64,000 nt of DNA from Armatimonadota bacterium (GCA_026003175.1 BPGT01000003.1:268278-332277); one strand, 5' to 3'. Positions 25,514-63,207 are shown, counted from the stretch's first letter. Numbers and translations are program-made. The notes: a model not told the origin generated them from the letters alone.

Positions 25514-25639
25514 GGTGTTTTGCTCACAGGGTGTACTCTCGGTTCGCAAGGCTGGTTTTCAACGTGAATGTTTTGGGCATCGGACGGATTTTTGCCCTTC
25601 CAGTATACGGGAGAGAAGTAAGCGGTGTCAAGCAACAGG

Positions 25640-25824
25640 GAAGGTATTCGAGAATTGTTGAGAAGTTGGTTGTAGCGCAAGGAGAGAGGCGTTCTTGCTA
25701 TCCCTGCCTTACCTCACCCCCGTCCCCTCTCCTACGAGGAGAGGGGCGTTCCCCCTTCCCTTGCAGGGAAGGGGGCAAGGGGGTTAGGTTATCTATCCAT
25801 TCAACCAGCAATTTCGAACACCCT
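25640..25824 (+). mobile_element. MITE copy A (~185 bp), flanked by 9-bp direct repeat AGCAACAGG (25631-25639 / 25825-25833)
   Basis: Near-identical to 51347-51532 and to the reverse complement of 48995-49180. Right TIR TTCGAACACCCTC, left TIR degenerate (GAAGGTATTCGAG). Internal palindromes CCCCTCTCCTACGAGGAGAGGGG and CCCTTCCCTTGCAGGGAAGGG. Intergenic. Confidence 0.75.
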
Positions 25825-25884
25825 CAGCAACAGGACTTCGCCCTGCCGCCGTCGAAAGGTTATGGTCACGGAGGGGGGTAGGCA

Positions 25885-37189: not shown

Positions 37190-37417
37190 GTTTCCAACCT
37201 GCCCGTGCTACCTGCGAACATTTTATTCGTCGCCAATCGCGCCGAAGTTGCGCACCAGCACGCCGAAGTCGAACAGGGTAACCTCCTCATCCCCGTCCAG
37301 GTCGGCATCCGGGTTCCAGTTGCTGTCACCGGGCACACTGCCAAAGGCGGCAACCAGCGCGCCGAAGTCGAACAGCGTGACCTCGTTATCGCCGTCGATG
37401 TCGCCGTTGATAAGGTC
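37190..37417. repeat. direct repeat 1 (dockerin module + 3' flank), partner at 38573-38800
   Basis: ~190 nt of coding sequence with about 5 mismatches by eye, plus similar 3' UTR. Each copy followed (lower coordinate) by a GC hairpin (CACGGGCAGG-tttccaa-CCTGCCCGTG at 37189-37215). Confidence 0.8.
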
Positions 37418-38572: not shown

Positions 38573-38800
38573 ATGCCCCTGACACCTTACCTACTGGCGA
38601 ACGTCTTATTCGTCGCCAATCGCACCGAAGTTGCGCACCAGCACGCCGAAATCGAACAGGGTAACCTCCTCATCCCCGTCCAAGTCGGCATCCGGGTTCC
38701 AGTTGCTGTCACCGGGCACACTGCCAAAGGCGGCAACCAGCTCGCCGAAGTCGAACAGCGTGACCTCGTTGTCGCCGTCGATGTCGCCGTTGATGAGACT
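38573..38800. repeat. direct repeat 2 (dockerin module + 3' flank), partner at 37190-37417
   Basis: See partner. Antisense ORF pairs 37248-37640 and 38631-38867 arise from this repeat. Confidence 0.8.
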
Positions 38801-47565: not shown

Positions 47566-48791
47566 CTACGCTCTCTAATATACCGAATCACCACTGTGCC
47601 GATTGCCCAGTACACCATTGCCAGCACCATCAGCGCACGATAGCCCGCCCCCATCTGCACCTGCTTATTGATGGCGTATGCAATCGGTCCGGCGATTAAA
47701 GGAGCAATCACCTGCGGCAGGGTGTCCGCAATGCCCCACACACCCATGTACTTCGCCGGAGCCTCCTCTGACAGCAGGTTGCACGCTAACGCCCAGTCCA
47801 CCGCCTGAAACACGCCGAATCCTGCTCCGAAGATGCCTACCGCGATGTAAACCACTCGTAGGTCGGTGGCAAAGAGAAAACCTATGCCCGCCACCAAGCA
47901 GATGAGGCAGGAGAGAGCCAGTATCAGCCGTTTGCTGTAGCGGTCGGCGAGCTTGCCTGCGGGAATCGTGCCTAAAATGCCGGTGACGGTGGAGAGTATC
48001 ATGAGATTGGTGATAAGCTGGAACGCCTCCTCGCGATAGCCTAATGTATCGCGCAGGTAGTATAGCAGGCAGAAGTTGACCGTATAAATACCCATCATGA
48101 TGGCGAGACGGCTTACCAGCAGCCACACAAAGCTCGGGTAGGGTTTCAGCGGCACACGGTAGCTGGAAGTTATCGCCTCCCACAGGGTGGGCGCGTTGCC
48201 GGTGTAAGGCTCTTCGCGGATGAGCCACACGTTCAGCAGCATGAAAGCGTTGAGGAAGAGAGCAAACAGCACCATCAGCCAGAATAACCCACGCTCCGAG
48301 CCCAGCAACAGACTGGCGGCGAAGGGACCGCCGATGCGTCCTAACAGGGTGCAGATGCCCATCCACGCCGAAGCGGTTCCGTGATACTGCCAGGGGATGC
48401 GGTCGGGAATCAGAGCCTGGTAGGGTCCGTTAGCCACGTTCAGAAAGAACTGGATAATGATGTAAACACCCATGAGCGTCCATGCGGTGCGTGCAGCGGG
48501 GAAAGCAAACAGCGCGATGGTCGTGAGCACGGTACCCACAATCAGGTAAGGACGTCTGCGCCCCATGCGGTGGCGGCTACGGTCGCTGATTGCGCCGAAC
48601 AGGATTTGCGTGGCAGAAGCTACGAACGCGCCGATGCTGGTTACTATCGCCAACACGCGGTCCTTTTCCTGTGAGCCAACCAGCTGCTCCACACGGTCGG
48701 GTAGAACCAATATCAGCACCGCGCCCCAGAAAAAGGAGAGCGCAAACCAGAAGAGGCTGATACCTAAATAGTCACGCAGGGTGGGTTTCAT
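47562..48791 (-). CDS. MFS transporter (sugar/glycoside type)
   Basis: 12-TM pattern. ORF extends to TTG at 48950; preferred ATG 48791 (MKPTLRDYLGISLFWF...). 4-nt overlap with DUF429 gene. Confidence 0.85.
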   Translation of the reverse strand: MKPTLRDYLGISLFWFALSFFWGAVLILVLPDRVEQLVGSQEKDRVLAIVTSIGAFVASATQILFGAISDRSRHRMGRRRPYLIVGTVLTTIALFAFPAARTAWTLMGVYIIIQFFLNVANGPYQALIPDRIPWQYHGTASAWMGICTLLGRIGGPFAASLLLGSERGLFWLMVLFALFLNAFMLLNVWLIREEPYTGNAPTLWEAITSSYRVPLKPYPSFVWLLVSRLAIMMGIYTVNFCLLYYLRDTLGYREEAFQLITNLMILSTVTGILGTIPAGKLADRYSKRLILALSCLICLVAGIGFLFATDLRVVYIAVGIFGAGFGVFQAVDWALACNLLSEEAPAKYMGVWGIADTLPQVIAPLIAGPIAYAINKQVQMGAGYRALMVLAMVYWAIGTVVIRYIRERR

Positions 48792-48994
48792 TGCCCTATG
48801 CAATTCGGTGTAAGAGGGCAACATTCCTTGCTGCTTCAGATGCATCGCATCCAACGGGCCGCCACGAGGGTTGCCCCTATGTTCGGGGACACTGCGAAGC
48901 ATGCGGCTGAAGCAGTCTCCTGCGGTGATTGGGTGTTTGCCAAAAAGCAATCCTGCAAAATCTTCCTGCTGTTTTACATATCAGCGTTTACCCT

Positions 48995-49180
48995 GAGGGT
49001 GTTCGAAATTGCTGGTTGAATGGATAGATAACCTAACCCCCTTGCCCCCTTCCCTGCAAGGGAAGGGGGAACGCCCCTCTCCTCGTAGGAGAGGGGACGG
49101 GGGTGAGGTAAGGCAGGGATAGCAAGAACGCCTCTCTCCTTGCGCTACAACCAACTTCTCAACAATTCTCGAACACCCTC
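48995..49180 (-). mobile_element. MITE copy B (186 bp, inverted relative to A/C), flanked by 9-bp direct repeat GTTTACCCT (48986-48994 / 49181-49189)
   Basis: Perfect 13-bp TIRs GAGGGTGTTCGA(A/G) / (C/T)TCGAACACCCTC. Interior near-identical to rc of copy A. Intergenic between MFS and GntR-type regulator genes. Confidence 0.8.
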
Positions 49181-49188
49181 GTTTACCC

Positions 49189-49217
49189 TTGACATATCTG
49201 GCGGGTTGATATAGAAT
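49189..49217 (+). promoter_or_regulatory. sigma-70-like promoter TTGACA-N17-TAGAAT, -35 box partly formed by the MITE target-site duplication
   Basis: Immediately right of MITE B; upstream of regulator gene 49246. Confidence 0.5.
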
Positions 49218-49245
49218 GAATGTGAATGTTATAGAACAAATCGTG

Positions 49246-50341
49246 ATGACGACGATGCCTGTATCCGAACCGCGCTACCGGCGTATCCAGAAGCATATCG
49301 AACAGCTCATCGCCCAGCGCAGGGTGTGTGAAGGTGAGCGCATCCCCAGCGAGCGCGAAATCGCCCGCCAGTTCGGCGTGAGCCAGATGACGGTGAACCG
49401 TGCCATTCAGGAGCTGGTGCGGGAAGGGGTGCTGGTGCGCCGAGTGGGTTCGGGCACGTACGTGCGACGCAGGCAGCCTTCTGTCCGCGAATCAACCCGC
49501 GCCACCGTGGTGATGGTACCCGCCCTTCGCCGACCACCTGGAAGAGGATACTTACCTGCGCTGGCCCTTCCACGCGTTCCGCGATAGAGCTATCAAGGAC
49601 GACTACGCGCTGGTGGTGGAACCTGCCTCCCACGAAGGCTACGAAGAGGTCGTGCAGCGCCACCCGGCTGCTGGGTTCATCTTCCTGATACCCGACGAGG
49701 AGGGTTACGATACTCTGCATCGCCTGTTTGTAAGGGGTGTTCCGTTCGTGGTGCTTGGAGCATCGTGGAAGGGTGCGCCCTTCGCCTGCGTGGATAGCGA
49801 CAATATCGGCGGCGCACGCATGGCGATGACATACCTGTTGCGGCTGGGACACAAACGCATTGCCTACGTGAACGGCAAAGATTCCGCTACCAACTGCCGC
49901 GACAGGCTACAGGGCTACCTGCAGGCGATGGAGGAACAGCGAATCCAGGTACAAGATGAGTGGATAGTGCGTCCGCACTCCAACTGGAAATTGAGCGAGG
50001 AGGCAAGGCGCCAGCTGACATCTTTGCTGCTACGTCGGGATGCGGTAACCGCGCTTTTCTGCGCGGGATACTACCTTACGCTGGATGTGCTGGGCTTAAT
50101 ACGCACCCTGCGCCTGCGCGTGCCTGAGGATGTGAGCATTATCAGTTTCGACGACCCCTCTTCAGCGGCGCACTTGCAGCCACCTCTTACTGTCGTGCGG
50201 CAACCGCTTTACACCATGGGCGAACGGGCGGTAGGCAGGCTGCTGAATCTGATACGCGCGCCGGCGAACGAGCCGGGCGGCGTGGAGTACTTGCCGGTGG
50301 AACTGGTCGTACGCAACTCGTGCGAACGCCTGCTGGAGTAA
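49246..50341 (+). CDS. GntR-type HTH + LacI/PBP-like sugar-binding domain transcriptional regulator; frame change at CCCGCCC (49519-49525)
   Basis: ORF 49216-49587 has GntR HTH (..RIPSEREIARQFGVSQMTVNRAIQELVREGVLVRRVGSGTYV). The continuation (PFADHLEEDTYLRWPFHAFRDRAIKDDYALVVEPASHEGYEE...) is in the frame of ORF 49613-50341, which carries a LacI-type ligand-binding domain. Start codon uncertain (49216/49246/49255). Confidence 0.75.
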
Positions 50342-50464
50342 CGTTTCCCTGTGTGTGGCGGGGAAGGCGTCTTTACAGTGAAGTGTTACATAACAAACAG
50401 GCGTTCTGCACGATTGCTATAACACTGCAAGAAACAACAGACAAACATGAGGGAGGTTCCAATC

Positions 50465-51256
50465 ATGAAGCGCAACGGTTTTACGCTCATCGAACTGCTA
50501 GTCGTGATAGCGATTATCGCTATCCTAGCGGCGATTCTGTTCCCGGTGTTCGCCCAGGCACGGGAGAAGGCGCGCATGACCGGCTGCCTTTCCAACACGA
50601 AGCAGATAGGTCTCGCACACAGCATGTACATTCAGGACTACGATGAGACCTTTGTGTGGAACCCCTGGCCCGGCGGACCCGGCGGCGCACCCTGGTGCGG
50701 CAACCCCGACCAGCCTACCCTGATATGGACGGGAGCGCTGATGCCGTACATCAAGAACAAGGGGCTGTTCCAGTGCCCGAGCATCAGCGCGGGTACTACT
50801 GAAAGCGCATGTCCCTGGTGCCCACTGGCGGGTAACTGTCGGTATTACATGGCGAACTACGTTGAGGCGAACGGGCTGTTGCCGGACTACTGTATTACCT
50901 ACGGTTTCAACGAGTACATCATTGGCAACCAGTGTTCGCCTCGCACGCTTGGGGCAATCGGCTCGCCGGCGTCGGTCGCTATCTTCGCCGATGCCATCGC
51001 CATGATGTGGGCGTCGTTCTACGGCATCACCGTCAACGGCGAAGGTCCCTTCTGGTGCGTTTCCGACCCCACCAGCGGCTGGTTGTACGGGCGTCCGGTG
51101 CACCATGTTACCGGTCCAGCCGCGAGACCGGTAGGAGCGATTAACTTCGTGTACGCTGACGGTCACGCCAAATCCGACAGAAACTTCTGGGCGGACGACT
51201 CCTACCCGGTGTACTGTCGTGGCGGTTATCGCGGCGCGCTGCTCTGGAAAGACTGA
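50465..51256 (+). CDS. DUF1559 domain protein with prepilin-type N-terminal methylation domain (paralog 2)
   Basis: GAGGGAGG 8 nt before ATG 50465 ([37 protein letters not shown]...). C-terminal VYADGHAK motif. Confidence 0.9.
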
Positions 51257-51346
51257 GAAAGCAAGACACGCAGAGGGCGAGTCTCCCACTCGATCTATTT
51301 GCACAAAAAGATTTTTTCGGCTTACCGGGAGGTTCGCCCTCCAGCT

Positions 51347-51532
51347 GAGGGTGTTCGAGAATTGTTGAGAAGTTGGTTGTAGCGCAAGGAGAGAGGCGTT
51401 CTTGCTATCCCTGCCTTACCTCGCCCCCGTCCCCTCTCCTACGAGGAGAGGGGCGTTCCCCCTTCCCTTGCAGGGAAGGGGGCAAGGGGGTTAGGTTATC
51501 TATCCATTCAACCAGCAATTTCGAACACCCTC
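51347..51532 (+). mobile_element. MITE copy C (186 bp), flanked by 9-bp direct repeat CCTCCAGCT (51338-51346 / 51533-51541)
   Basis: Perfect TIRs GAGGGTGTTCGAG / TTCGAACACCCTC; one interior mismatch to copy A. Intergenic between DUF1559 and PEP-CTERM genes. Confidence 0.8.
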
Positions 51533-51540
51533 CCTCCAGC

Positions 51541-51569
51541 TTGACAATTTCTGCAAACAGAGCGATAAT
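51541..51569 (+). promoter_or_regulatory. sigma-70-like promoter TTGACA-N17-GATAAT; -35 box begins within the MITE target-site duplication
   Basis: Directly right of MITE C, 56 nt before ATG 51625. Confidence 0.5.
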
Positions 51570-51624
51570 GGACTCCGTAAGGAATACGTATTCCGAAACA
51601 TGACTCGAAAGGAGGGTTCGTCAC

Positions 51625-52539
51625 ATGACACGCTTTGCCTGTGTTGCCGTAACCGTTGCGGCAAGCTTCTTGTTCGTCACCGCTACCTTCGCCCAGCCGG
51701 TCATTGATGGCTCCTGGGACCCCGTCTACCAGGTACTTGCCGTGCAGAACACCCAGACCGGCTTCGGCGACAGCAACCTCGGACAGGTGGACTACGCCAA
51801 CGGCTCCGAACTGGACGTTGCCTATGGAACTTACCACAGTGGCTGGCTCTATCTGCTGCTGGCGGGCAATCTGGAGTCCAACTTCAACAAACTGGAAATC
51901 TTCTTCGACACCCGCCCCGGCGGGCAGAACCGATTGCGCGGAGACAACCCCGACGTGGACTTCAACGGGCTCAACCGCATGGGCGATGACGGCAGCGGCA
52001 ACGGCTTGACCTTTGATCCCGACTTTGAGGCAGACTTCTGGGTTGGGGTGACTGGGGGCGGTTCGCCGTATCGGCTGTATGCGAACTATGCGGAGTTAGG
52101 CAGTCCGGGTTTGGGGTTGTATCTGGGCAACACGGGCGCGGCAAGCGACGGGGCGCTGGTGGATGGGAGCAACCCGTTTGGCATCCGTGTGACGATTAAC
52201 AACAGCAACGCAGGAGGAGTCACCGCAGGCACAGGTGCTGGCAATGGAGCGGACGTGATGACGGGTGTGGAGCTGGCGATACCGCTGAGCGCTCTGGGCA
52301 ACCCGACCACCCCGTACATTAAGGTCTCCGCCTTTATCAACGGCGTAGGACACGACTACCTGTCCAATCAGGTGCTGGCTGGGATAGGTGGTGGAGGCAA
52401 TTTAGGTGAGCCGCGTCAGGTAAACTTCGGCAACATCCCCGGCAACCAGTACTTCCTTGCACCTGTGCCCGAGCCTTCCAGCCTCAGCGTGTTGCTGCTG
52501 GGTCTGGGCGCATGGGCGATACGCAGACGAAGAGGGTAA
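51625..52539 (+). CDS. PEP-CTERM sorting domain-containing secreted protein
   Basis: AGGAGGG before ATG. Signal peptide. C-terminal VPEPSSLSVLLLGLGAWAIRRRRG. Confidence 0.88.
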   Translation: MTRFACVAVTVAASFLFVTATFAQPVIDGSWDPVYQVLAVQNTQTGFGDSNLGQVDYANGSELDVAYGTYHSGWLYLLLAGNLESNFNKLEIFFDTRPGGQNRLRGDNPDVDFNGLNRMGDDGSGNGLTFDPDFEADFWVGVTGGGSPYRLYANYAELGSPGLGLYLGNTGAASDGALVDGSNPFGIRVTINNSNAGGVTAGTGAGNGADVMTGVELAIPLSALGNPTTPYIKVSAFINGVGHDYLSNQVLAGIGGGGNLGEPRQVNFGNIPGNQYFLAPVPEPSSLSVLLLGLGAWAIRRRRG

Positions 52540-52562
52540 GTGCTTTTCCCACACCCGTAGCC

Positions 52563-52588
52563 CCCTCCCGAAGCTTCGGGAGGGGGCA
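52563..52588 (+). terminator. GC-rich perfect palindrome CCCCCTCCCGAAG|CTTCGGGAGGGGG (no U-tract)
   Basis: 13-bp stem 24 nt after stop of PEP-CTERM gene; probable transcription terminator/insulator before next promoter. Confidence 0.45.
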
Positions 52589-52598
52589 CCTCAAACGC

Positions 52599-52628
52599 TT
52601 GACAGGTTTATCGCAGCTAATGTATAAT
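52599..52628 (+). promoter_or_regulatory. sigma-70-like promoter TTGACA-N18-TATAAT
   Basis: Consensus hexamers 60 nt upstream of ATG 52690. Confidence 0.55.
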
Positions 52629-52689
52629 TAATGCAAAGTTATGCCCTTAACCTGTGGGCAAAAATCACCATAGGGAGGTGTGCACAGTC

Positions 52690-53625
52690 ATGAAGCGCGG
52701 CTTTACGCTGATTGAGCTGCTGGTGGTCATCGCGATTATCGCGATACTGGCAGCCATCCTCTTCCCTGTGTTCGCTCAGGCGCGTGAGAAAGCGCGGCAG
52801 GCGTCCTGCCTGAGCAACCTCAAACAGATAGGCACGGGCGTGATGATGTACGTGCAGGACTACGACGAGACTTTCCCGTACAACAGGTTTGTTGGTAATG
52901 GGGGCGCAACGTGGTCTAACTGGAAGTACGGGATCTTCCCGTATGTAAAGAACCTTCAGGTGTATGAATGCCCCAACGCGAAGGCGCAAATCTCCCGAAT
53001 GCTTGGCGACAACGTGAACGCCTGGAGAGGTTCGCCGATGGATGAGACCTGGGCTCACTGCCACCCCAGTTCGCCATGGCTGCGTAACGACCCGCTGTGC
53101 GATATCCCGCGCAGCCAGAACCTGTGGTTCCCTCGCGGCTACACAGTCAACGGTGCAGTGTTCAACCTGGCAGCCTACCAGTCTGGCTATGCAGATACTC
53201 CCAGGAAACTGGCGGACATCGATGTGCCCGCTGAGACCATCTGGCTGCAAGACGGTAAGAACTACGAGCCTGATACCGGTCCCTGGGCGTTGGTTCGCTG
53301 CTGGTGTAATCCGCCTGGTGACCCGTTCGGTGGCGATGTGCCTGCGGCAGGGTCGCCTTGTCTGGATGGCAAGGTGCGCCAGTATGGCTGGCTGGTCAAC
53401 CATCTGAAAGGCGTGCACTTCGTGTTTGCAGATGGGCACGTGAAGTGGACGCGGGTGCAGGGTGCAATTTCTAATAACCTGTGGAAGTGGACCTGCTTCC
53501 GGCGCCCGGGCGAGCGCACGTTCCCTTACGACGGCTACGATAACAACGTGTACAACTGCAGGCAGCCCGATCCGGATACCTGCCGCAACGTTGCACAGTT
53601 ACTGGTGGCCGGCGAGTACAGGTAG
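52690..53625 (+). CDS. DUF1559 domain protein with prepilin-type N-terminal methylation domain (paralog 3)
   Basis: AGGGAGGTG before ATG 52690 ([36 protein letters not shown]...). C-terminal VFADGHVKW. Confidence 0.9.
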
Positions 53626-53642
53626 TGCTCAACATATCCACG

Positions 53643-53678
53643 CCCCTCTCCCGGCGCCGCGGGAGAGGGGTTTTTTGC
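53643..53678 (+). terminator. rho-independent terminator (CCCCTCTCCCG-gcgccg-CGGGAGAGGGG + TTTTTT)
   Basis: 11-bp stem plus T6, 17 nt after stop of paralog 3. Confidence 0.75.
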
Positions 53679-56527
53679 TACTCTCGCTTACGTGCCCGCT
53701 TCTTGGCATCCAGTAACCTGCCGATTTGCTCGCTGGAGGTGGACGGCTGAGGTGAGGCAGGGTGAGAAGCGGTAGTTTCAACAGCAGCGACCTCTTCCGC
53801 AGGAGACGAAGATGCGGTCGTGGTGGGAGGGGCGTATCTCTCGCGCAATCGCTCTTTGCGCTGCAGGAGCCTTGATGTTGCGGAAGCGTGGGCGGGTGTC
53901 TCGCGTCTCAAGTGGAAACGCGCTAACGCACGTGCCCATACTTGCTGCCACTCAGGCAACACCTCCGCCTGCCACACGATGCGCCTCAGCGCAACGTCCA
54001 CCGGCAGCAGCAACAACGCCACAAATAGCAGGGGGATGCTCGCTTCCGAGGGCACGCGCACCGGAGCGCGTTGAGCACCGAAAATATCCTGCGGCGACGG
54101 CCGTTGTCTGCCTCCGGTGAGGCGCGCTATCTGTTCCAGTAAGGCGGTGTTGCTCTTCAGGTCGCGATATTCGGGCGAATAGGCAACGGTATCGGTTCCG
54201 GTGCTGACTGCTATGGTGCCGTTGGGCAGGCGATACTGTACGGCAACTACGTATGTTCCGTAACCGCGTGCATCGAAGGCGGCTTCGTAGCGAGTGGCGC
54301 CCGTTTGCGATAGCACCAGCGGAATCGCCTGGCCGGTCGGGGCAATCAGTTTGGCGGTCAGCGAGCGCAGGTTTGCGTTCTCGCTGGCAGGTTGTTGCAG
54401 AAGGTCCACGCTCACGTATCCCTTCCCACCCGAGATGTTCACCGTTGTGCGCACATCGTCGGCTGGCAGGCTACGCAGGATGGTGCGCATGGTACGCGCG
54501 GCGAAGGCGGGGAAGTCCGCCCATCTGACCCATTGCGCACACCATTTCGCGCGCCCATCCGAAGTGAACACCATACTGCGCCCGACGCCATACTGCCACA
54601 CCGCAAAGACAGGGTCGTCCTTGTGCGAGAGCAAACCGATCTGCGCTCCCGGCTTGGCAGTGGTGGTGTTGTAGCCGAGTAACGGTGGTGAACTCTCCCA
54701 GTTCAAGCCCGACACGATTTCGTTGCCGGTGTAGCGTACATAGAACGGCTCCTCGATATATTGCGCTTTGCTGGCAATCATCGCCTCTTTGGTGAAGATT
54801 TGGGGCAGGTTCGCCATGCGGTCGGTGTAGTAGTAGCGTCCGCCGCCCGCCTTCGCCAGCTGCTGCAGGAAAGCCTCATCCTTACCGTGACCGAAACAGA
54901 CAACGGTAACGGTGATGCCTGCCTGACGCAGTTTGGCTGCAAGCGGAATCGCTCCTTCCTGATCGTCGCAGTCGTCGCCGTCCGCAAGCACAATCATGTG
55001 CTTCAGTTTGGCTCGGCTGACCTGCATCAGCTTCGCCCCCGCCTCCATGCCGGGGCGCACATAGATACCACCCCCACCTGGTTGGAAGGCAGCGATAGCA
55101 CGCAGAATCTGCTCTTTCTTCTCGCCCACCCGCCACATCGGCACCACTGCGCGGCAGTCGGAACCGGCAGCGATAACGCCTACCTCGTCCTGTGCGGTCA
55201 GGAAGCGCACCACTGTGGCTGCGGCGCGGTTCGCCAGCTCCATCTTGGTAGTTCCGCCTTCCGGCATTGCCATACTGCCCGAATCGTCTATTACCAATAC
55301 AATGCCCACACTGGGAAAAGAGTGGTACTTGCGCACGTCCATCGACACAGGCAGAGCCTCTTCTACAGGCGTTTCAAAGTAGCCTCCCGCGCCGAAGCTG
55401 TCTTCACCGCCTACCATACCCAGCCCGATGCCCAACTCGCGCGTGGCGGTCTGCAGGGCGCGCATAGTTGGGATGCCCAGTTCATAGGCGGGCACGTTGT
55501 GTAGAATCACTGCGTCGTACGCCTGCAGTTGCGCCGGTTGTGTCTTCATTCCCTGCGGATCGACCACCTCTACACGGATCCGTTGTGACTGTGCGGCGAT
55601 GGACAGCGGGGTGGGGTTTCCGCTGTCGGTAACATACAGCACGCGCGGCGTGCCCTGCACACGTACGTAGCCCGCACCGCGATTGTTCTGGGGATAGGTA
55701 TCTACCGGAGCCATCATCGACACCTGGTAGCGATACTGACCCGCGCTGTCCTCGCGGTGCGTCAAGCGCACTAGGTTCTTGCCGCGCTTTAGCGCTACCG
55801 TCTGCGTCTTCACAGGCTGTCCGTCCCGCAGCAGGGTCAGCTCTGCCGATTGCTCGTGGGTGGATTGTATCCACACGCGCATGTCGAACGGCTCGCCCTC
55901 TTTGACCAGCGTGGGCACTTGCACTCGCTCTACCAGCGCCTCAGTGTGCACCTCACGCGGGAAGGGAACCACATGCACCTTTACCCCGCGGCTGGCAGCT
56001 TGCAACGCCTGTGCCGCGGTGTCGCCTGTGTTCGCGTTGCCGTCGGAGAAGAGTACTATCTGCTTACCCGCGTTTTCGGGGAAGGCAGCAAGAGCAAGAC
56101 TGATAGCGCGTCCGATATCGGTCATTTCGGGGGAACTGCTGGCGGGTACGCGGCTCAGGTCGGGGCGTGCGCTCAGCGAGGTCACCACCTGTGGGTCACT
56201 GCCGAAGACGATGACGCCTGCCATGTCGTCCTCGCGCATGTGGCGCACGGCTTCGCGAATGAATCGCAGGGAGGTCTCCCGCTGCTGCGGTTCCACACTT
56301 GCGCTACCGTCTACCACGAAGAACACCGCCTGAGCGGTGGTGGTGCGCACCCAGCGGATTCCCGCCAGCGCGAGGATGATAAGGGTCACCAGCAACAGGC
56401 GCAATCCCAGCGATGCCTGCTTCTGCCAGTGGGGCAGAGCTGCCAGGCTATGTCGATGCACCCACCAAAAGGCGGGCAACACCGCCAGCAAGAGCAACAT
56501 CCACGGGTGTGCGAACTCTACAGGCAT
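53678..56527 (-). CDS. BatA/BatB-like protein with two von Willebrand factor A domains and N-terminal TM anchor
   Basis: MPVEFAHPWMLLLLAVLPAFWW (BatA-like N-terminus). Two VWA MIDAS-type starts VVDGSASV and VIDDSGSM. 949 aa. Confidence 0.85.
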   Translation of the reverse strand: MPVEFAHPWMLLLLAVLPAFWWVHRHSLAALPHWQKQASLGLRLLLVTLIILALAGIRWVRTTTAQAVFFVVDGSASVEPQQRETSLRFIREAVRHMREDDMAGVIVFGSDPQVVTSLSARPDLSRVPASSSPEMTDIGRAISLALAAFPENAGKQIVLFSDGNANTGDTAAQALQAASRGVKVHVVPFPREVHTEALVERVQVPTLVKEGEPFDMRVWIQSTHEQSAELTLLRDGQPVKTQTVALKRGKNLVRLTHREDSAGQYRYQVSMMAPVDTYPQNNRGAGYVRVQGTPRVLYVTDSGNPTPLSIAAQSQRIRVEVVDPQGMKTQPAQLQAYDAVILHNVPAYELGIPTMRALQTATRELGIGLGMVGGEDSFGAGGYFETPVEEALPVSMDVRKYHSFPSVGIVLVIDDSGSMAMPEGGTTKMELANRAAATVVRFLTAQDEVGVIAAGSDCRAVVPMWRVGEKKEQILRAIAAFQPGGGGIYVRPGMEAGAKLMQVSRAKLKHMIVLADGDDCDDQEGAIPLAAKLRQAGITVTVVCFGHGKDEAFLQQLAKAGGGRYYYTDRMANLPQIFTKEAMIASKAQYIEEPFYVRYTGNEIVSGLNWESSPPLLGYNTTTAKPGAQIGLLSHKDDPVFAVWQYGVGRSMVFTSDGRAKWCAQWVRWADFPAFAARTMRTILRSLPADDVRTTVNISGGKGYVSVDLLQQPASENANLRSLTAKLIAPTGQAIPLVLSQTGATRYEAAFDARGYGTYVVAVQYRLPNGTIAVSTGTDTVAYSPEYRDLKSNTALLEQIARLTGGRQRPSPQDIFGAQRAPVRVPSEASIPLLFVALLLLPVDVALRRIVWQAEVLPEWQQVWARALARFHLRRETPAHASATSRLLQRKERLRERYAPPTTTASSSPAEEVAAVETTASHPASPQPSTSSEQIGRLLDAKKRARKRE

Positions 56528-56533
56528 ATCCGC

Positions 56534-58672
56534 TCACCGCAGGGCGCGTTCACATTCCTGACGCAGTTCTTCCAGCGCACGCTGGCGCTCGGGACTGAGG
56601 GACGTCGCCTGTGCCATCGGGTTGTTCTGGCGTGCGGAGCGGTCTGCATCTAAAATCTGCAGGGCGCGAGCGTAACGTTCGTGCACCTCAGCCTGCGACT
56701 TACCCTGTGACCGCGCGATTCGTGCTAACCCCGCGTAGGCGAAGGCGTAATCCACTTCGGGCAGCTCGGGGACTGCACGCACCCGGTTATACACGCTTTT
56801 TTCTATCTCCAGCATTCGCCGATACACCGCCTCCGCCTCTTGTAGTTTACCCTGTTGCTCCAGCGTTTTGCCCAGTTCTACCATCACGCGCAGGGCGTGT
56901 GGGTCCAGATCCAGCGCGTGACGATAAGCGTCGACGGCTCTGGCATGGTCGCCCAGCACATCCCGATACAGATTACCCAGATGGTACCACGTTTTGGAGT
57001 ATGGGGTCAGTTCCACCGAACGACGCAGTGCCTTTTCGGCTTGCTCGGCACGCGAGAGATCGCCCGCGCGTGCCATGCCCAAATAAAGCGTACCCAGAGC
57101 CAGGTAGTGGTCGCCGTTAAAGGGTTCCCAGCGCAGGGCGTGCTGGTAGCCTTCTTCATCTGGGATGCCCTGTGACAGGTTCCAGTTTGCGCTGTTCGCG
57201 CTGAGCGCGCCACCCATGCGCAGAGTCAACACACTCATGGCGATAACCAGCAGGGTGGTGTGGGCGAGATAGAGATGATGGAGAGATGTTGCCTTCCTTC
57301 CGTGCCCCTCTTCCAGAGGGAGAGGGGTGAGCGAAAGCATCAACCCCACGATTGCCCAGAAGGTAAGCAGACAGGCGAAGATAGACCAGTCGGAGTCCAT
57401 CAGGTTACGCGCCAGTCCTGAGGCAATCGCTCCCGCCAAGCCTGCACGAAGCAGTGGACTAAATCCCGCACCATGAGCCTCATTTGTGGTGCGCACTTCA
57501 GTGCGCAAAGCACCCCACGCTAGCACACCTAACGTACTCAGCAGCAATACCAGAGCGGGCAACCCCGCTTCCGCTGCCATCTGCAGGTACGAGTTATGCG
57601 CTAGTCGGGTGAACCCCACGAGAGCGTAGCGCGGGTAGGCTATCTCGTACGTACCCAGCCCCGTGCCCAGCAGGGGGTGAGCCTGTACCATGCGCAAGGT
57701 GCCCCGCCACGTCCATACGCGAAACCCCCCTGAGTGTTCGCCTTCCTGTACCGTTGGTATCGCCACGCGCGCGGTAAGCGAGCGAGCGGTGAAGAACGCC
57801 GTAGCCAGCACCATCAGGCATACGATACCGAACAACAGCGCACGCTGGCGATTCCATGAGCGATTGAACGTCATCCACCCCGCCATCACCACCAGCGCGA
57901 GGATGGCACTTGCCGTACCAAAGCGGGAACCCGTAAGCAGGATAGTGGTCATCTGCATCCACGCACCGAACCCCAGCAGCCAGCGCCATTCCCCTCTCCC
58001 TCTGGGAGAGGAGTCAGGGGTAAGGGCTGGACCAGGCAAGAAAGCCATCGCCAGTGCCAGCGTGACAGGCATGGTCAGGCACAGATAGCCCGCCAGGAAG
58101 TTGGGGTTGAAGAAGGTGCCGAACACGCGCCAGTTGGGCACGATGCGCACGTTCTCCGCGTACTCGCGCATGGCGAAGGCGGAGGCGAGTGTGCCAGCCA
58201 GTGCCAGCGCAAAGCTGACCGTCAAAGCCTGTTCCTCGCGCCTTCGCGAGAAAAGCCACGCGGAGGCAATGGCTACCGCCCACAGGCTCCACGCAACCAC
58301 CGTCCCCCACCGATACGCTGACACCACCACCGACGCCAGCATCCACAACAGCAACAGGGTCGCCAGCACGCGCGCCGAGCGCGGGACAGCGTCATCGCCG
58401 ACAGGAAGTGTTTTCCATTCCCATATCGTGGCGATAAGGGTGAGCAGGGCAATCAGCCAGACAGCAACTGGCAACAGTGTGCCGGTGGTGAACAGGGCGG
58501 TCGCCACCCCACGTAAAGACGGCTCCACCGGCTCGCCGCCCAGCTCCAGTCGACCGGTAGTAAGCGGTGCAAGCACCAGCGCAAGGCTTAACAACCATGT
58601 GGAGGGCGTGGTTTGCAATCGCAAAGGTTGTGGGTATTCAGTTGGTTTCTTGCTCGGATGACCTCTCTTCAT
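56534..58672 (-). CDS. O-antigen ligase (Wzy_C) domain membrane protein with C-terminal TPR repeats
   Basis: ATG 58672 overlaps TGA of upstream GT2 gene (ATGA). Polytopic region with TRLAHNSYLQMAAEAGL (O-antigen-ligase hallmark). C-terminal ~250 aa TPR-like. Confidence 0.8.
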   Translation of the reverse strand: MKRGHPSKKPTEYPQPLRLQTTPSTWLLSLALVLAPLTTGRLELGGEPVEPSLRGVATALFTTGTLLPVAVWLIALLTLIATIWEWKTLPVGDDAVPRSARVLATLLLLWMLASVVVSAYRWGTVVAWSLWAVAIASAWLFSRRREEQALTVSFALALAGTLASAFAMREYAENVRIVPNWRVFGTFFNPNFLAGYLCLTMPVTLALAMAFLPGPALTPDSSPRGRGEWRWLLGFGAWMQMTTILLTGSRFGTASAILALVVMAGWMTFNRSWNRQRALLFGIVCLMVLATAFFTARSLTARVAIPTVQEGEHSGGFRVWTWRGTLRMVQAHPLLGTGLGTYEIAYPRYALVGFTRLAHNSYLQMAAEAGLPALVLLLSTLGVLAWGALRTEVRTTNEAHGAGFSPLLRAGLAGAIASGLARNLMDSDWSIFACLLTFWAIVGLMLSLTPLPLEEGHGRKATSLHHLYLAHTTLLVIAMSVLTLRMGGALSANSANWNLSQGIPDEEGYQHALRWEPFNGDHYLALGTLYLGMARAGDLSRAEQAEKALRRSVELTPYSKTWYHLGNLYRDVLGDHARAVDAYRHALDLDPHALRVMVELGKTLEQQGKLQEAEAVYRRMLEIEKSVYNRVRAVPELPEVDYAFAYAGLARIARSQGKSQAEVHERYARALQILDADRSARQNNPMAQATSLSPERQRALEELRQECERALR

Positions 58673-59568
58673 TGCCTCCCCAGCATCCTCAGTCGAAGCG
58701 CGATGAGGTAGTTGCGGGCTACCAGCAGATTCGCCCTCAGCCATAGCCCCAGTGGAATCACCAGCCTGCTCCAGAGGGGCATCCGGTGGGCATAATGCTT
58801 CTGGAAAAAGAGGCGATGACTGCGATGAAACTGCCGGATCATGGCGTTCACCGCCTTGTCGCTACTGCGTCCGATGGCGTGAGTGACCACCGCTTTGGGG
58901 TGGTATACCACTTTCCAGCCCATCTCGTGCGCCCGCCAGCACAGGTCCACGTCCTCGCAATACATGAAGAACCGTTCGTCAAATCCGCCCAGCTGCTGCC
59001 ACGTTTCGCGCCGCACCATCATCGCGCAGCCGGACACCCAGTCCACCTCTATCGTGTGCGCATGGTCGAAGTCGGTCATCAGGTAGTCACGCACGAAGCG
59101 GTTTTGCGGAAAGAGCCTGCCCAGAAAGGTGTTGCGGAACAGCCCCGCCTCATAGACGGGGAAGCGTCGGCAAGAGTACTGCAGCGAGCCGTCGGGGTTC
59201 AGCACCTTCGGGGCGATGATTCCCACATCGGGATGCGCGTCGGCGTAGTCCACCAGCGCTTTAAGCGAGCCCGGGTGCGCCTTCGCGTCCGAGTTCAGCA
59301 GCATCAGATACCTGCCCTGTGCCAGCTGCGCGGCGCGGTTGTGTGCCTTGCCGAAGCCCTCGTTCAGGCGGTTTTCAATCAGCTTCACCTCCGGGAACTC
59401 GCGCTTGACCATGGCCACGCTGTCGTCCCAGGAGGCGTTGTCCACCACGATAATCTCCACCTGCACGCCCGGATGATGCGAGGGGTGTAGCGAGAGCAGG
59501 CACTCGCGCAGTTCATCGCGCGTGTTCCAGTTGACCACGATGACGCTCACATCAGGTTGTTCGTTCAC
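58669..59568 (-). CDS. glycosyltransferase family 2
   Basis: VSVIVVNWNTRDELRECL..VVDNASWDDS (GT2 Rossmann DXD context). Confidence 0.9.
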   Translation of the reverse strand: MNEQPDVSVIVVNWNTRDELRECLLSLHPSHHPGVQVEIIVVDNASWDDSVAMVKREFPEVKLIENRLNEGFGKAHNRAAQLAQGRYLMLLNSDAKAHPGSLKALVDYADAHPDVGIIAPKVLNPDGSLQYSCRRFPVYEAGLFRNTFLGRLFPQNRFVRDYLMTDFDHAHTIEVDWVSGCAMMVRRETWQQLGGFDERFFMYCEDVDLCWRAHEMGWKVVYHPKAVVTHAIGRSSDKAVNAMIRQFHRSHRLFFQKHYAHRMPLWSRLVIPLGLWLRANLLVARNYLIALRLRMLGRQ

Positions 59569-60430
59569 TCTGCCAGCCCTCGCGTCCTTTGCCCAGCGTC
59601 TTCAGCCAGGCGTTCAGGGTGATGCTTGCCACAATCAACCAGTATATCGGCTTCGGCAGGCGTTGCCGATAATGCTTCGCATAAAACTTCTGCAGGGAGC
59701 GATGCGATTCCCATATCATCTGCGGGCGCACCTGCCGCGTGCTTGCCCCGCCATGATGGATAATGACCACGCCGGGGTGAAACACAATCTTCAGCCCCAT
59801 CCTTTTCGCCCGATAGCACCAGTCCACCTCGTTGAAGAAGATGGGAAACCGCTCGTCCATCAGCCCCACTGTTTGCACGGCGCGTCGGGAGAGCATCAGG
59901 AAGGTTCCCATCGGCTGGTCTACCTCGGCGATATGGTCGTAGGTGAACCACGTCATGCGATACGCGCCAAACCGGCGCGAGCGGGGAAACAGCCTCGCCA
60001 ATCCCAAATACTCCCACATCACTGCTTCGGGTTCCGGGAAGCCCCGCACCGACTGTTGCACGCGCCCGTCGGGGTGTATCAGTTTCGCGCCCAGCGCGGC
60101 GACGTCGGGGTTCTCGCGCATGTACTGCACAGCGGTATCCAGCGCGCCCTCCGTCACCTCGGTATCGGGGTTGAGCAGCAGCAGATACTCGCCCTGCGCC
60201 TTTTGCAACAGCAGGTTATTGCCCACCGCGTAGCCCAGATTGCGCTCGGAGGCTATCAGATGCACTTCGGGGAACTCCGTTTGTACGGTCTGCGCGCTGC
60301 CATCGTGCGAGGCATTGTCTAGCACCCATACCTCCATCGGCTCGGAGAGGGGATAGAGGCGCAACGACTGCAGGCACGCCCGCAACAGCTCGCGCGTGTT
60401 CCAGTTGACGATGAGCACGGAGAGGGTCAT
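59552..60430 (-). CDS. glycosyltransferase family 2
   Basis: ATG 60430 (MTLSVLIVNWNTRELLRACL...VLDNASHDGS) overlaps TGA of HAD gene (ATGA). Upstream ORF extension to 60601 is low-quality. Confidence 0.88.
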   Translation of the reverse strand: MTLSVLIVNWNTRELLRACLQSLRLYPLSEPMEVWVLDNASHDGSAQTVQTEFPEVHLIASERNLGYAVGNNLLLQKAQGEYLLLLNPDTEVTEGALDTAVQYMRENPDVAALGAKLIHPDGRVQQSVRGFPEPEAVMWEYLGLARLFPRSRRFGAYRMTWFTYDHIAEVDQPMGTFLMLSRRAVQTVGLMDERFPIFFNEVDWCYRAKRMGLKIVFHPGVVIIHHGGASTRQVRPQMIWESHRSLQKFYAKHYRQRLPKPIYWLIVASITLNAWLKTLGKGREGWQSERTT

Positions 60431-61083
60431 AGCAGCTCCCTCAATTCCCTCACCAGCACATCGGGCGGGTGGTTGCGGAAGGGGTTGATGGGCACATCCA
60501 GCCGCCAGATGCCCACCGTTCGGCATCCCGCTGCCCTGCCCGCCTCTACGTCCATCCAGTAGTCGCCCACCACCACGCAGTGAACAGGAGCGATGCCCCA
60601 TTCCTCCAGCGCAACCATCACATGCTGCGGATGGGGCTTCACCCTCTGCACATCGTCGCGGCTGACCAGCAATTCATACGGTATCTGCAGGGTGTTCAGG
60701 GTGCGCAGGGAGACCTCGCGGTCGTTGCGGGTGATGATGCCGATGCGAACGCGCTGCTCCCTTAACCCGTTGAGCAGGTCGTACATGCCGGGCACAGGAC
60801 GGGGTGAGGCGCAATATGCCATCTCCATCGCCTGCAGTCGGGCGAAGGCGCGTTGACGCAGCTCTGTGCTCTCGTCCTCTCTGCCTGCAGAACGCAGTGC
60901 TTCCACTGCCCGCTCTACCGCGCCCAGTGCGTCCATATCCTGCAGGGGAAGAGTATCCACACCGTACTCCGCTATCAGTTGCAGAGCCGCCGCACGCAGT
61001 CTGGAGAAGTCAATACCCGTCTCGACGAGCGTACCGTCGAGGTCAAATAACACGGCGTGCGCATTCTGGAAGATGGTGTGCAT
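60427..61083 (-). CDS. HAD-superfamily hydrolase (phosphatase-like)
   Basis: Motif I VLFDLDGTLV, motif III K, motif IV VGDYWMDVEAG. Confidence 0.85.
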   Translation of the reverse strand: MHTIFQNAHAVLFDLDGTLVETGIDFSRLRAAALQLIAEYGVDTLPLQDMDALGAVERAVEALRSAGREDESTELRQRAFARLQAMEMAYCASPRPVPGMYDLLNGLREQRVRIGIITRNDREVSLRTLNTLQIPYELLVSRDDVQRVKPHPQHVMVALEEWGIAPVHCVVVGDYWMDVEAGRAAGCRTVGIWRLDVPINPFRNHPPDVLVRELRELL

Positions 61084-61228
61084 ATCTGGATTATACCAGC
61101 CCTTGCCTGAGCAGGAGAAGAGGGGGGATGTAGTGAACTGAAAATGTCATGCTGAGCGTCAGCAAAGCATCTTCACTACCGATTCACGCGCTTTGCAAAC
61201 ACGGATGATTACAAGGGAGGAGCCTATC

Positions 61229-61618
61229 ATGCCCAAACAGGTCATCACCACACATGATGCCCCGGCGGCAATCGGACCCTACTCCCAGGCGATTCGCGTA
61301 GGCAACCTGGTTTTTACATCGGGGCAGATACCGCTGCACCCGCAGACGGGCGAAATCGTCGGCGACACCGCTGCCGAACAAGCGCGACAGGTGCTGCACA
61401 ACCTGCAGGCGGTGCTACAGGCGGCGGGTGCCTCCCTGCAGGATGTGGTCAAAACCACCATCTTTCTGACCGACCTGGGACAGTTCGCGGCGGTGAATGC
61501 GGTGTACGCCGAGTTCTTCCCCAACGACCCGCCTGCGCGTTCGACGGTGCAGGTAGCAGCACTGCCGCGCGCGGTGCAGGTGGAGATAGAGGCGGTAGCG
61601 GTAGTCGAGCAGGGCTAA
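61229..61618 (+). CDS. ridA: RidA family protein (reactive intermediate/imine deaminase, YjgF-like)
   Basis: AAGGGAGGAG before ATG 61229 (MPKQVITTHDAPAAIGPYSQAIRVGNLVFTSGQIP...). Confidence 0.88.
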   Translation: MPKQVITTHDAPAAIGPYSQAIRVGNLVFTSGQIPLHPQTGEIVGDTAAEQARQVLHNLQAVLQAAGASLQDVVKTTIFLTDLGQFAAVNAVYAEFFPNDPPARSTVQVAALPRAVQVEIEAVAVVEQG

Positions 61619-62970
61619 CCCCGCGCCGCCTCGTACAGCAGTTCCACCAGCGTCGGATGGGCAGGGTAGAGGGACGCCAGGGTCTCCATCGTCCCGCCCA
61701 TCGCGATTGCTGTTGCCAGCGGGGCGAGTACGTCCGCTGCGTGGGAACCAATTGCTGAACCGCCGAGTAATTTGCCTGTGTTCTCTTCCACTACCAGCTT
61801 CACGAAGCCCTCGGTTTCGCCCAGCAGCTGCGCTTTCAGGTTGCTGGCGTACTCGGCTCGAGGCGACTTTACACGCAGACCCTGCTCACGCGCTTGCGCC
61901 TCGGTGATGCCCACCTGCGCCACCTGCGGTTGGGTGTACACCGCCTCCACCACCAGCTCGGAGCGGAAGGGCGATGTGGGTAGACCCAACGCATGACGCA
62001 CTGCCACCCGCGCCTGCGCCCAACCGCGATTAAGGGTAAATGGCGGTCCCGCCGCATCACCTGCCGCGTAGATATGCGCCACAGGCGACTGCAAGTATTC
62101 GTTCAGGGGTATTCCCTGCGGACTAGATGGCACACCTGCTGCCTCCAGATTCAGCCGTGACAGGTCTGCCCGCCTGCCGATAGCCACAAAGGCATGACTG
62201 CCCTCCAGCACCCTGCCATTGGCGAGATGCGCCTGCACCCCGTTTTCGGTGGCGGTGACGCTTTCTACCGGTGAGGAGAGCAGCACCTCAATACCTATCT
62301 GCCGAAAAGCGTGCTCCAGCAACTGCGACGCCTCTTCGTCCGCACGGGGCAGCAGGCGCGGCATATCGGTCACTATCGTTACCTCTGAACCCAGCACGCG
62401 GAACAGGTAGGCGAACTCACTGCCCGTCACGCCTCCGCCCACCATAACGATATGTTCGGGGAGCGACTGCAGGTTACTGGCGAAGCGTGGCGCAAGGATG
62501 CGCTTGCCGTCGGGCTTCATGCTGGGAGGGAAGATGGGCACGGAACCTGTGGCGATGATGGCGACATCGAAGGAGATTTGCCGTTCGCCGCCTCCTTCCA
62601 ACTGCACTTTCACTGCGTGCGGAGACACAAACGATGCTACACCCCGCAGGGTCTGCACCCCTGCCTGCTGCAGAGACTGCTTCTGCAACTCACCCCACTG
62701 GTGCGTGCGCTGGCGGATGCGTTCCATCAAATCAGCAACCTCAGCGCCCTCTGCAGTGACCTTGACCCCACGATGAGGCGCGTAGTAATTGTCCAACAGA
62801 GTATCCGCTGCCGTTAACAGTACCTTGCTGGGCACGAGACTATCCCACGTGGTGCGCCCGCCGACCTCGCCCTCGCTGATAAGGACGACTTCCGCGCCCA
62901 GCCTCGCCGCCTCCAGCGCGGCATGAACACCCACCGAACCGCCGCCAATGACCAATACACTTTTGGACAT
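61615..62970 (-). CDS. FAD/NAD(P)-binding oxidoreductase of the dihydrolipoamide-dehydrogenase family lacking the redox-active CxxxxC
   Basis: GGAGGTGA then ATG 62970 (MSKSVLVIGGGSVGVHAALEAARLGAEVVLI...). The LPD consensus GGTCLNVGCIPSK is replaced by GGRTTWDSLVPSK. C-terminal HPTLVE retained. Confidence 0.85.
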   Translation of the reverse strand: MSKSVLVIGGGSVGVHAALEAARLGAEVVLISEGEVGGRTTWDSLVPSKVLLTAADTLLDNYYAPHRGVKVTAEGAEVADLMERIRQRTHQWGELQKQSLQQAGVQTLRGVASFVSPHAVKVQLEGGGERQISFDVAIIATGSVPIFPPSMKPDGKRILAPRFASNLQSLPEHIVMVGGGVTGSEFAYLFRVLGSEVTIVTDMPRLLPRADEEASQLLEHAFRQIGIEVLLSSPVESVTATENGVQAHLANGRVLEGSHAFVAIGRRADLSRLNLEAAGVPSSPQGIPLNEYLQSPVAHIYAAGDAAGPPFTLNRGWAQARVAVRHALGLPTSPFRSELVVEAVYTQPQVAQVGITEAQAREQGLRVKSPRAEYASNLKAQLLGETEGFVKLVVEENTGKLLGGSAIGSHAADVLAPLATAIAMGGTMETLASLYPAHPTLVELLYEAARG

Positions 62971-63156
62971 GCGCTTCACCTCCAATGGTTGGACTCGGCA
63001 GGAAAGCGAGGGGATTCAGAGGGACAGCTCGGCGGGAGCCTCGCCCTCCAGGAGGCTGTAGATATGTGCGATGGCGATGTGCCCGAAAACGCACTGCATC
63101 CCGTTCGAACGAGGGTCGCGACGGAGCGTAACCCTCGGAGATATGTTTGAGGTTTT

Positions 63157-63169
63157 TTCGAACACCCTC
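63157..63169 (+). mobile_element. solo MITE right-end fragment TTCGAACACCCTC
   Basis: Exact match to the right TIR of copies A-C. No left end or interior nearby. Followed 9 nt later by TTGACT. Confidence 0.5.
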
Positions 63170-63177
63170 TGCGTGTC

Positions 63178-63207
63178 TTGACTCCCTATCCATTAGCCCT
63201 GTAAAAT
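63178..63207 (+). promoter_or_regulatory. sigma-70-like promoter TTGACT-N18-TAAAAT
   Basis: Upstream of ATG 63235; same geometry relative to the MITE end as at copies B and C. Confidence 0.45.

Follow-up and report, generated by a model that had tools for sequence, protein, structure and literature searches.

Some bacterial transposable elements take a short functional motif of their host as a landmark and insert with constant spacing and register to it, thereby sparing its genes. The handful of targets known for site-specific transposons are attTn7, repetitive extragenic palindromic (REP) sequences, dif sites, tRNA genes and res sites; for example, Tn7 inserts at attTn7, and the insertion sequences (ISs) IS1397 and ISKpn1 insert in REP/BIME (bacterial interspersed mosaic element) sequences. 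ISAjo2, which belongs to the IS1202 group, inserts next to XerC/dif sites (PMC10132070). This work addresses a MITE (miniature inverted-repeat transposable element) family detected in a 64,000-nt stretch of DNA from a hot-spring Armatimonadota bacterium (GCA_026003175.1 BPGT01000003.1:268278-332277; hereafter the window), in which three complete copies and one isolated end lie immediately upstream of predicted promoters. Like ISAjo2, IS1397/ISKpn1 and Tn7, these elements possess terminal inverted repeats (TIRs), are flanked by a target site duplication (TSD) and keep a constant register to a host motif. Unlike them, they are found in either orientation, and their motif appears to be the -35 box of sigma-70-type promoters, which would be cut as T^TGACA and restored by the TSD.

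Small elements located directly 5' of genes and close to promoter hexamers have already been described. ISs that carry an outward-reading -35 box form hybrid promoters with sequences of their host. Among MITEs, Correia elements (CREE), MITEAba12 and BrickBuilt carry promoters, and a 2024 review of prokaryotic MITEs mentions only a general preference for intergenic regions and element-borne promoters (PMC10969869). The elements of the window resemble all of these in their location. However, Correia-type elements and hybrid-promoter ISs supply the promoter or its -35 box, whereas here the complete promoter belongs to the target and is older than the insertion. Literature searches, whose coverage is incomplete and whose silence is therefore no proof, retrieved no IS or MITE reported as targeting the -35 box and no relevant paper with this TIR. 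Targeting of the -35 box would thus be a new specificity for a known kind of element, a proposal well supported by comparison of sequences.

The three complete copies, A, B and C (Table 1), are 96-99% identical and each of them is flanked by its own perfect 9-bp TSD. A perfect 12-nt TIR (GAGGGTGTTCGA / TCGAACACCCTC) bounds B, C and 29 further copies found outside the window, and the length of the copies ranges from 171 to 201 nt. The element has no coding capacity and its DNA is predicted to fold strongly (z = -7.9 for copy C); no Rfam family matches the MITE or the window. Allowing up to 2 mismatches, the window contains six occurrences of the 13-nt end of the MITE, where 1.3 would be expected, and the repeat finder extended the match between A and B by 14 nt past the left end of A. 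On every structural feature examined, i.e. TIRs, TSDs that vary from copy to copy, size and sites devoid of the element in relatives, this small dispersed element is a MITE.

Table 1. Coordinates of the MITE copies, their target site duplications, the adjacent predicted promoters and associated repeats (window positions unless a locus is named; T1, first base of the -35 box).
Feature	Position	Strand	Remarks
MITE copy A	25640-25825	+	186 nt; left TIR degenerate (GAAGGTATTCGA), right TIR perfect
TSD of A, left copy	25631-25639	.	agcaacagg; first base (A25631) pairs with T1 of the -35 box on the minus strand
TSD of A, right copy	25826-25834	.	agcaacagg
Promoter abutting A	25602-25631	-	TTGACA (25626-25631), 18-nt spacer, TATACT (25602-25607); faces GH10 gene 24245-25549 (Pfam)
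MITE copy B	48995-49180	-	186 nt; orientation opposite to that of A and C
TSD of B, left copy	48986-48994	.	gtttaccct
TSD of B, right copy	49181-49189	.	gtttaccct; final base is T1 of the -35 box
Promoter abutting B	49189-49217	+	TTGACA (49189-49194), 17-nt spacer, TAGAAT (49212-49217); 5' of GntR-HTH/LacI-type regulator gene (49216/49246-50341)
MITE copy C	51347-51532	+	186 nt; long hairpin fold with two internal GC-rich stem-loops
TSD of C, left copy	51338-51346	.	cctccagct
TSD of C, right copy	51533-51541	.	cctccagct; final base is T1 of the -35 box
Promoter abutting C	51541-51569	+	TTGACA (51541-51546), 17-nt spacer, GATAAT (51564-51569); 5' of PEP-CTERM gene 51625-52539
141-nt insertion relative to L049	63029-63169	+	ends in perfect MITE end TTTTTTCGAACACCCTC; no left TSD
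'Solo' TIR	63157-63169	+	TTCGAACACCCTC; right end of the 141-nt insertion
Promoter at the 'solo' end	63170-63207	+	tgcgtgtct, then TTGACT (63178-63183), 18-nt spacer, TAAAAT (63202-63207); 5' of PhyH-family gene starting at 63235
GC-rich short repeat	63024-63051; 51326-51354; L022 3994-4021; L025 4484-4511; L033 2125-2152; L024 9476-9502

All four element ends of the window that abut a promoter display the same arrangement: the TIR, 8 nt, TTGAC(A/T), a spacer of 17-18 nt and a -10 box. The probability of finding TTGAC at an identical offset from four ends is about 1e-11 (our own arithmetic, from a frequency of about 8e-4 per position in these sequences), and chance is excluded as the cause of this constant offset. 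An earlier note on this DNA had pointed out the arrangement at B, at C and at the solitary end, with coordinates that all proved correct when the sequence was re-read, and had described it as 9 nt followed by TTGAC. The constant distance stands; the spacing is in fact 8 nt plus the first T of TTGACA, these 9 nt being the TSD. As the note had also seen, the -35 box begins within the duplicated target site at B and C, the last base of the TSD being T1. By contrast, its statement that copy A lacks this arrangement does not hold: read on the minus strand, positions 25602-25639 give cctgttgcT TGACA-18 nt-TATACT, which adjoins the left end of A. Nor is proximity to the promoter a property of a 'right end' of the element. 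Indeed, B is inverted relative to A and C, and the promoter is faced by 'end2' (GAGGGTGTTCGAGAATTG...) in A and B but by 'end1' (GAGGGTGTTCGAAATTGC...) in C.

The flanking sites score 10-12 out of 12 as sigma-70-type promoters, and a scan of positions 48500-52000 retrieved just two sites, those adjoining B and C, each scoring 11/12. These hexamers are predicted promoters, conserved in relatives for two of them. According to first-ORF (open reading frame) detection, genes start 4-55 nt past the -10 box; as a test of promoter function, the presence of a downstream ORF does not discriminate in this high-GC DNA, in which both flanks show ORFs. The PEP-CTERM gene has a Shine-Dalgarno-like aaggaggg about 10 nt ahead of its ATG, and the promoter at the solitary end lies 27 nt upstream of the PhyH ATG. 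The regulator located 3' of copy B is split in two ORFs, one encoding a GntR helix-turn-helix (HTH) domain (49216-49587) and the other a periplasmic-binding/LacI-like domain (49613-50341); this split could result from a frameshift, a pseudogene or a sequencing error. Since its first ATG (49216) lies partly within the -10 box TAGAAT, this regulator probably starts at the in-frame ATG at 49246.

Sites devoid of the element (loci retrieved from other genomes and contigs are designated L001, L002, etc.) are available for copy A and for the solitary end. In L001 and L002, whose SDH-type protease is 97% identical, the intergenic region between the GH10/CBM9 and protease genes reads ...GTATAAGCGGAACAGGGCGCGTCCGTCAAGCGACAGGACTTG... 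without any element. The empty site of L001 carries a single AGCGACAGG and a minus-strand promoter, TTGACG-18-TATACT, and that of the more distant L004 carries TTGACA-18-TATACT with a differing spacer sequence. Similarly, L049 (GCA_017880035.1) harbours the same divergent Pyr_redox/PhyH gene pair as the window; it is devoid of the sequence 63029-63169, contains GTGTG TTGACTCCCCGTCCATTAGCCCTGTAAAATAT and keeps the same -35 box, spacer length and -10 box as the promoter at 63178-63207. In L001, L004 and L049, the hexamers are conserved while the spacer sequence diverges. Since the empty sites already hold the same promoters, these predicted promoters belong to the target and predate the insertions. 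No empty site was obtained for B and C, the relatives that possess the neighbouring MFS transporter gene carrying different genes on that side. In L051 and L052 (Logan contigs from a close relative), the sequence stops, at the 5' end, some 130 nt ahead of the MFS transporter gene, within a CCCCTCTCCTCGCAGGAGAGGGG hairpin that resembles one found in the MITE; in that strain, a repeat may occupy the place of copy B.

The comparison with L049 also alters the status of the 'solo' end, which the earlier note had proposed to be a regulatory remnant: it is actually the right end of a 141-nt insertion. The insertion resembles the 186-nt MITE only over its last ~16 nt, the remainder being unrelated; a copy that has undergone truncation or rearrangement is the most likely interpretation. 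A consensus -35 box at a constant distance from the element end could also mean that the element carries part of a promoter, as in the outward hybrid promoters of many ISs and of Correia elements, and the earlier note had listed this explanation. However, the -35 box lies past the TSD in host DNA, the boxes pre-exist in empty sites and differ between copies in -35 sequence, spacer and -10 box, either end of the element can face them, and TSD-bearing copies have a promoter on only one side despite their identical TIRs. An element-borne -35 box or partial promoter is thus extremely improbable.

A search that ignores flanking sequences (two 12-nt TIRs separated by a gap of 147-177 nt) was run on metagenome, metagenome-assembled genome (MAG) and viral collections. 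It matched 28 metagenome loci and 10 MAG loci and retrieved no TIR-gap-TIR match in viral contigs. The MAGs are labelled Armatimonadota, Armatimonadetes or Fimbriimonadales, save one 'uncultured bacterium' MAG and one 'Polyangiaceae' contig. The exact 20-mer of the MITE end was absent from genome and metagenome contig collections, and about 150 kb of sequence from related genomes, retrieved for other purposes, contained no TIR. Including those of the window, the search led to 32 non-redundant copies, 29 of them additional, which form several subfamilies with only ~16 nt of TIR in common. According to an all-against-all BLAST of the loci, the copies outside the window lie in unrelated contexts, and no repeat longer than the MITE was detected. 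In one JGI contig (L020 and L023; 3052-3239 and 11783-11970), two occurrences of the same MITE, with identical flanks, are separated by 8.7 kb, which reflects either a large tandem duplication or an assembly artefact.

The earlier note had proposed a genome-wide tabulation of the sequence outside the right TIR of each copy; among the copies gathered here, TTGAC is found at offsets of 6-12 from a TIR end at 22 sites, against about 0.4 expected (our own arithmetic). A TSD of 8-12 bp, mostly 9 bp, with at most 2 mismatches, flanks 23 of the 32 non-redundant copies. Among the 15 copies with a clean 9-bp TSD, 13 show TGA immediately next to the TSD, on one side and never on both (chance expectation, about 3% per copy), and in all 14 copies that have both a TSD and a full promoter the TSD ends with T1 of the -35 box. 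These 14 TSDs measure 9 bp in nine copies, 10 bp in one (L026), 11 bp in three (L018, L020 and L028) and 12 bp in one (L035). As the 9 nt between the TIR and TGAC correspond to the TSD, one of the two cuts would lie between T1 and T2 of TTGACA. No TSD-bearing copy has a promoter on both sides, and either end of the element is found beside the promoter (end2 in six cases, end1 in two). Aligned on TGA, the flanks display C (77%) and T (84%) before it, C (71%) and A/T after it, and a TAnAnT signal 17-18 nt further on. Among the explanations listed in the note, a preference of the element for sites located just upstream of promoters is therefore supported by the geometry of the TSD, by the promoters of the empty sites and by a rule kept in independent copies.

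Two other views of the target were tried and rejected. A palindromic target (GTCAA...TTGAC) does not fit the distal flanks, which show no motif. Copies in which TTGAC seems offset by 1-3 nt are no rule-breakers, their 10-12-bp TSDs still abutting TGA.

Prokaryotic MITEs are generally intergenic (PMC10969869), and random insertion followed by purifying selection might have left copies only at harmless sites upstream of promoters. However, selection cannot yield the single-nucleotide precision observed for T1 (14/14) and TGA (13/15), and other intergenic positions are equally harmless. Such a scenario is hardly credible.

A more delicate question is whether the sequence motif or the functional promoter is recognized. 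A TAnnnT sequence at a 16-19-nt spacer follows 19 of the 22 TIR-adjacent TTGAC (86%), against 14 of 77 other 'intergenic' TTGAC (18%) and 23 of 484 coding ones (5%; Fisher p = 7e-9), the background relying on crude ORF-based gene calls and including rRNA and probably unrecognised genes. Real promoters therefore appear to be favoured at TIR-adjacent sites, the caveat on the background still standing. This might reflect protein-guided targeting, in which RNA polymerase holoenzyme, bound to the -35 box through sigma region 4, would tether the transposase or a partner, or in which the whole promoter would be sensed, so that the element would seek out working promoters and not the TTGAC string as such. 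Besides the frequency of proper -10 boxes, such guidance would account for an asymmetric target faced by either end of the element, as a separate targeting module would give, and for TSD lengths of 9-12 bp while one cut stays fixed at T^TGAC. On the other hand, the estimate for background TTGAC is crude, and pure tethering should allow -35 boxes devoid of TGA, whereas TGA is kept in 19 of the 23 TSD-bearing copies, including five that have no recognisable -10 box (L010, L012, L017, L019 and L021-4755, with TTGA or CTGA at the boundary). The boxes next to the copies vary (TTGACA, TTGACT, TTGACC, TTGATT, CTGACA), and non-consensus ones (TTGATT, CTGACA, ATGACA, TTGAAT) also keep TGA. Because these boxes and the copies without a -10 box retain TGA, direct read-out of (C)TTGAC is favoured, and protein-guided targeting, still a live rival, is considered unlikely.

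Globally, the interpretation that we regard as probable is that these 171-201-nt MITEs of thermophilic Armatimonadota are non-autonomous TIR transposons, moved in trans by a transposase that would target (C)TTGAC in a sequence-specific manner and leave the core promoter intact. This transposase, presumably of the DDE type, would read the motif directly and make staggered cuts, one between T1 and T2 of 5'-(C)TTGAC(A/T)-3' and the other 9 bp (occasionally 10-12 bp) upstream on the opposite strand. The element would be joined in either orientation and gap repair would duplicate the 9 bp. The promoter-proximal junction would then be TIR-N8-TTGACA, with a regenerated hexamer and an unchanged region from about -44 to +1, while DNA located further upstream than 8 bp before the core promoter would be displaced by about 195 bp. 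Insertion would be nearly neutral for the core promoter. Intergenic TTGAC would in these genomes be essentially the -35 box of sigma-70-type promoters; as insertions in coding TTGAC are presumably lost, surviving copies would be found at the upstream edge of promoters, in either orientation.

In a variant that we hold to be possible but rather doubtful, the transposase or a partner would recognise promoters as sigma does, through a sigma-region-4-like helix-turn-helix reading TTGACA or by docking on RNA polymerase holoenzyme. If true, such sigma-like recognition would be a bacterial counterpart of Ty3-type promoter tethering, and the element would act, at many promoters, as a mobile module taking the place of all DNA upstream of -45, so that upstream regulation would be rewired or the promoter insulated.

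Several observations weigh against targeting of (C)TTGAC by a transposase acting in trans. No transposase was detected in the window (Pfam search of about 50 ORFs), and no autonomous element was found in about 0.5 Mb of fetched loci or in viral contigs. Four TSD-bearing copies (L011, L015, L021-7144 and L039) have no TGA at the boundary, and nine copies have no TSD. The excess of complete promoters (86% vs about 18%) goes beyond what a bare 5-6-bp motif should give, although the background is crude. Furthermore, the promoters are predictions, two of them backed by conservation in relatives, and the wider sample is drawn from collections and confined to copies of 171-201 nt whose 12-nt TIRs are perfect.

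Pairs of TIR-like sequences 0.6-3 kb apart were considered as candidates for an autonomous element and rejected, as they correspond to ordinary genes in L026, L010 and L019.

The earlier note had also suggested that the TIR is a transcription-factor site co-opted by the element. Relative to the transcription start, the TIR would be located at about -58 to -45 (our own estimate), and exaptation of the TIR or of the A/T-rich subterminal tract as a transcription-factor site, an UP-like element or an insulator could be imagined. Copies, lone ends included, would in that case be exapted regulatory modules. Indeed, the TIR keeps a constant position with respect to the -35 box in all copies, lone ends persist by promoters (window 63157-63169; L026 1742, near the ArsR/P-type ATPase promoter), four of the nine strong intergenic promoter-like sites of the window bear an element end, and the strong hairpins of the element could block read-through transcription. 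However, the TSD alone accounts for the geometry, the subfamilies have no more than ~16 nt of TIR in common, the hairpins lack U-tracts (our own reading of the sequence), the downstream genes are unrelated in function (GH10, GntR/LacI regulator, PEP-CTERM protein, PhyH, NrdR, Rex), and in relatives the same genes have the same predicted promoters without the element. A co-opted site is thus not needed to explain the geometry, and exaptation appears improbable; a secondary regulatory effect at these positions is possible, and it can add to targeted insertion rather than stand in for targeting.

Copies devoid of TSD behave differently from those flanked by one. At least two of them (L041 4597-4781 and L042 2916-3104) have outward promoters on both sides, and a third (L043 7328-7515) joins this group if TTGACA-19-TATATA is accepted. 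Four others (L014a 2096-2268, L020-9186, L032 and L046) have no promoter on either side. This two-or-none pattern is what recombination between copies that each adjoined one promoter would be expected to give, and it suggests inversions or deletions that swapped flanks.

Copies B and C (together with the DNA between them, window 48995-51532) are mutually inverted (99% complementary) and bracket a 2.2-kb segment that carries the GntR-HTH/LacI-type regulator and a DUF1559 prepilin-type gene, which gives the whole the look of a composite transposon. As each has its own intact TSD, B and C were inserted separately. If they recombined, the 2.2-kb segment would be inverted and both promoters exchanged.

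Lone TIRs also occur outside the window. In L026 (1732-1790), an inward-pointing TIR (GAGGGTGTTCGGG) directly follows a complete MITE with its 10-bp TSD, and is itself followed, after 7 nt, by TTGACT-19-TAATAAT upstream of genes encoding an ArsR-type regulator and a P-type ATPase. As a second promoter, which drives a Rex-like gene, is located on the other side, the complete MITE of L026 lies between two divergent promoters. In L004 (7640-7700), a lone perfect TIR (CTTCGAACACCCTC) separates a truncated DUF5060 gene fragment from the gene that follows; its flanks are CCTGCCTG...CAGGCAG, no TTGAC comes after it, and it may be the scar of an element-mediated deletion.

Other known elements share some of these features. 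IS200/IS605 elements have neither TIRs nor TSD, are mobilized as single strands by a Y1 transposase and insert 3' of a short motif, TTGAT for ISDra2 and TTAC for IS608. As for these two, insertion of the MITE is keyed, on one side only, to a short TTGAC-like oligonucleotide. Membership in this family is nevertheless rejected, the elements described here having 12-16-nt TIRs and 9-12-bp TSDs and being located 5' of TGAC. IS186 (IS4 family) has a hot spot in the lon promoter of E. coli, generates 10-12-bp TSDs and uses a GGGG(N6-7)CCCC-type target; it resembles the MITE by its promoter-region hot spot and variable TSD length, but it disrupts the promoter, whereas the MITE would target the -35 hexamer and keep the promoter. 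The retroelements Ty3, Ty1 and Tf1 are tethered by transcription factors, Ty3 integrating upstream of Pol III genes. Like them, the MITE is located just upstream of transcription units and spares coding DNA; unlike them, it is a DNA transposon, for which the observations favour read-out of the DNA sequence. Finally, the IS903 group of the IS5 family, which includes MITEs such as MITEAba12, has a 9-bp TSD and TIRs with a G-rich or TGTT-type start. Its TSD length and TIR start are loosely like those found here (GGCTTTGTTGAA), which, like the resemblance to IS186, is a lead only, and 10-12-bp TSDs also occur in the present family, 9 bp being the commonest.

The remainder of the window is ordinary Armatimonadota chromosome, with genes encoding glycoside hydrolases, DUF1559/prepilin-type proteins, a PEP-CTERM protein and LacI/GntR regulators. 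A second, GC-rich short repeat, (CAGCTCGGC)GGGAG(C/G)(C/T)TCGCCCTCCAG, is found repeatedly between genes in several of these genomes (Table 1); it is part of the target of copy C and of the 63029-63169 insertion. Positions 10467-13163 (minus strand) encode an 898-aa protein with a Tubulin_2 domain (PF13809), located in the same gene neighbourhood in L004. A 207-nt direct repeat (37208-37414 and 38591-38797, 95% identity) lies within two adjacent paralogues (37223-38449 and 38606-39943), the second of which shows NHL/Vgb-lyase-like repeats.

A transposon that uses the -35 hexamer as a target and rebuilds both this hexamer and the core promoter would represent a new 'safe haven' strategy in bacteria. 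The copies of the element would be a ready-made marker of real promoters in a phylum for which there are almost no transcriptional data. As DNA upstream of about -45 would have been displaced at many genes, they would also constitute a natural experiment on upstream regulatory sequences. The transposase, if found, may provide a -35-specific DNA-binding module or a tool for promoter-aimed integration. Furthermore, inverted copies located beside promoters can swap these promoters by recombination, and the TSD-less copies with two promoters or none suggest that such exchanges occur.

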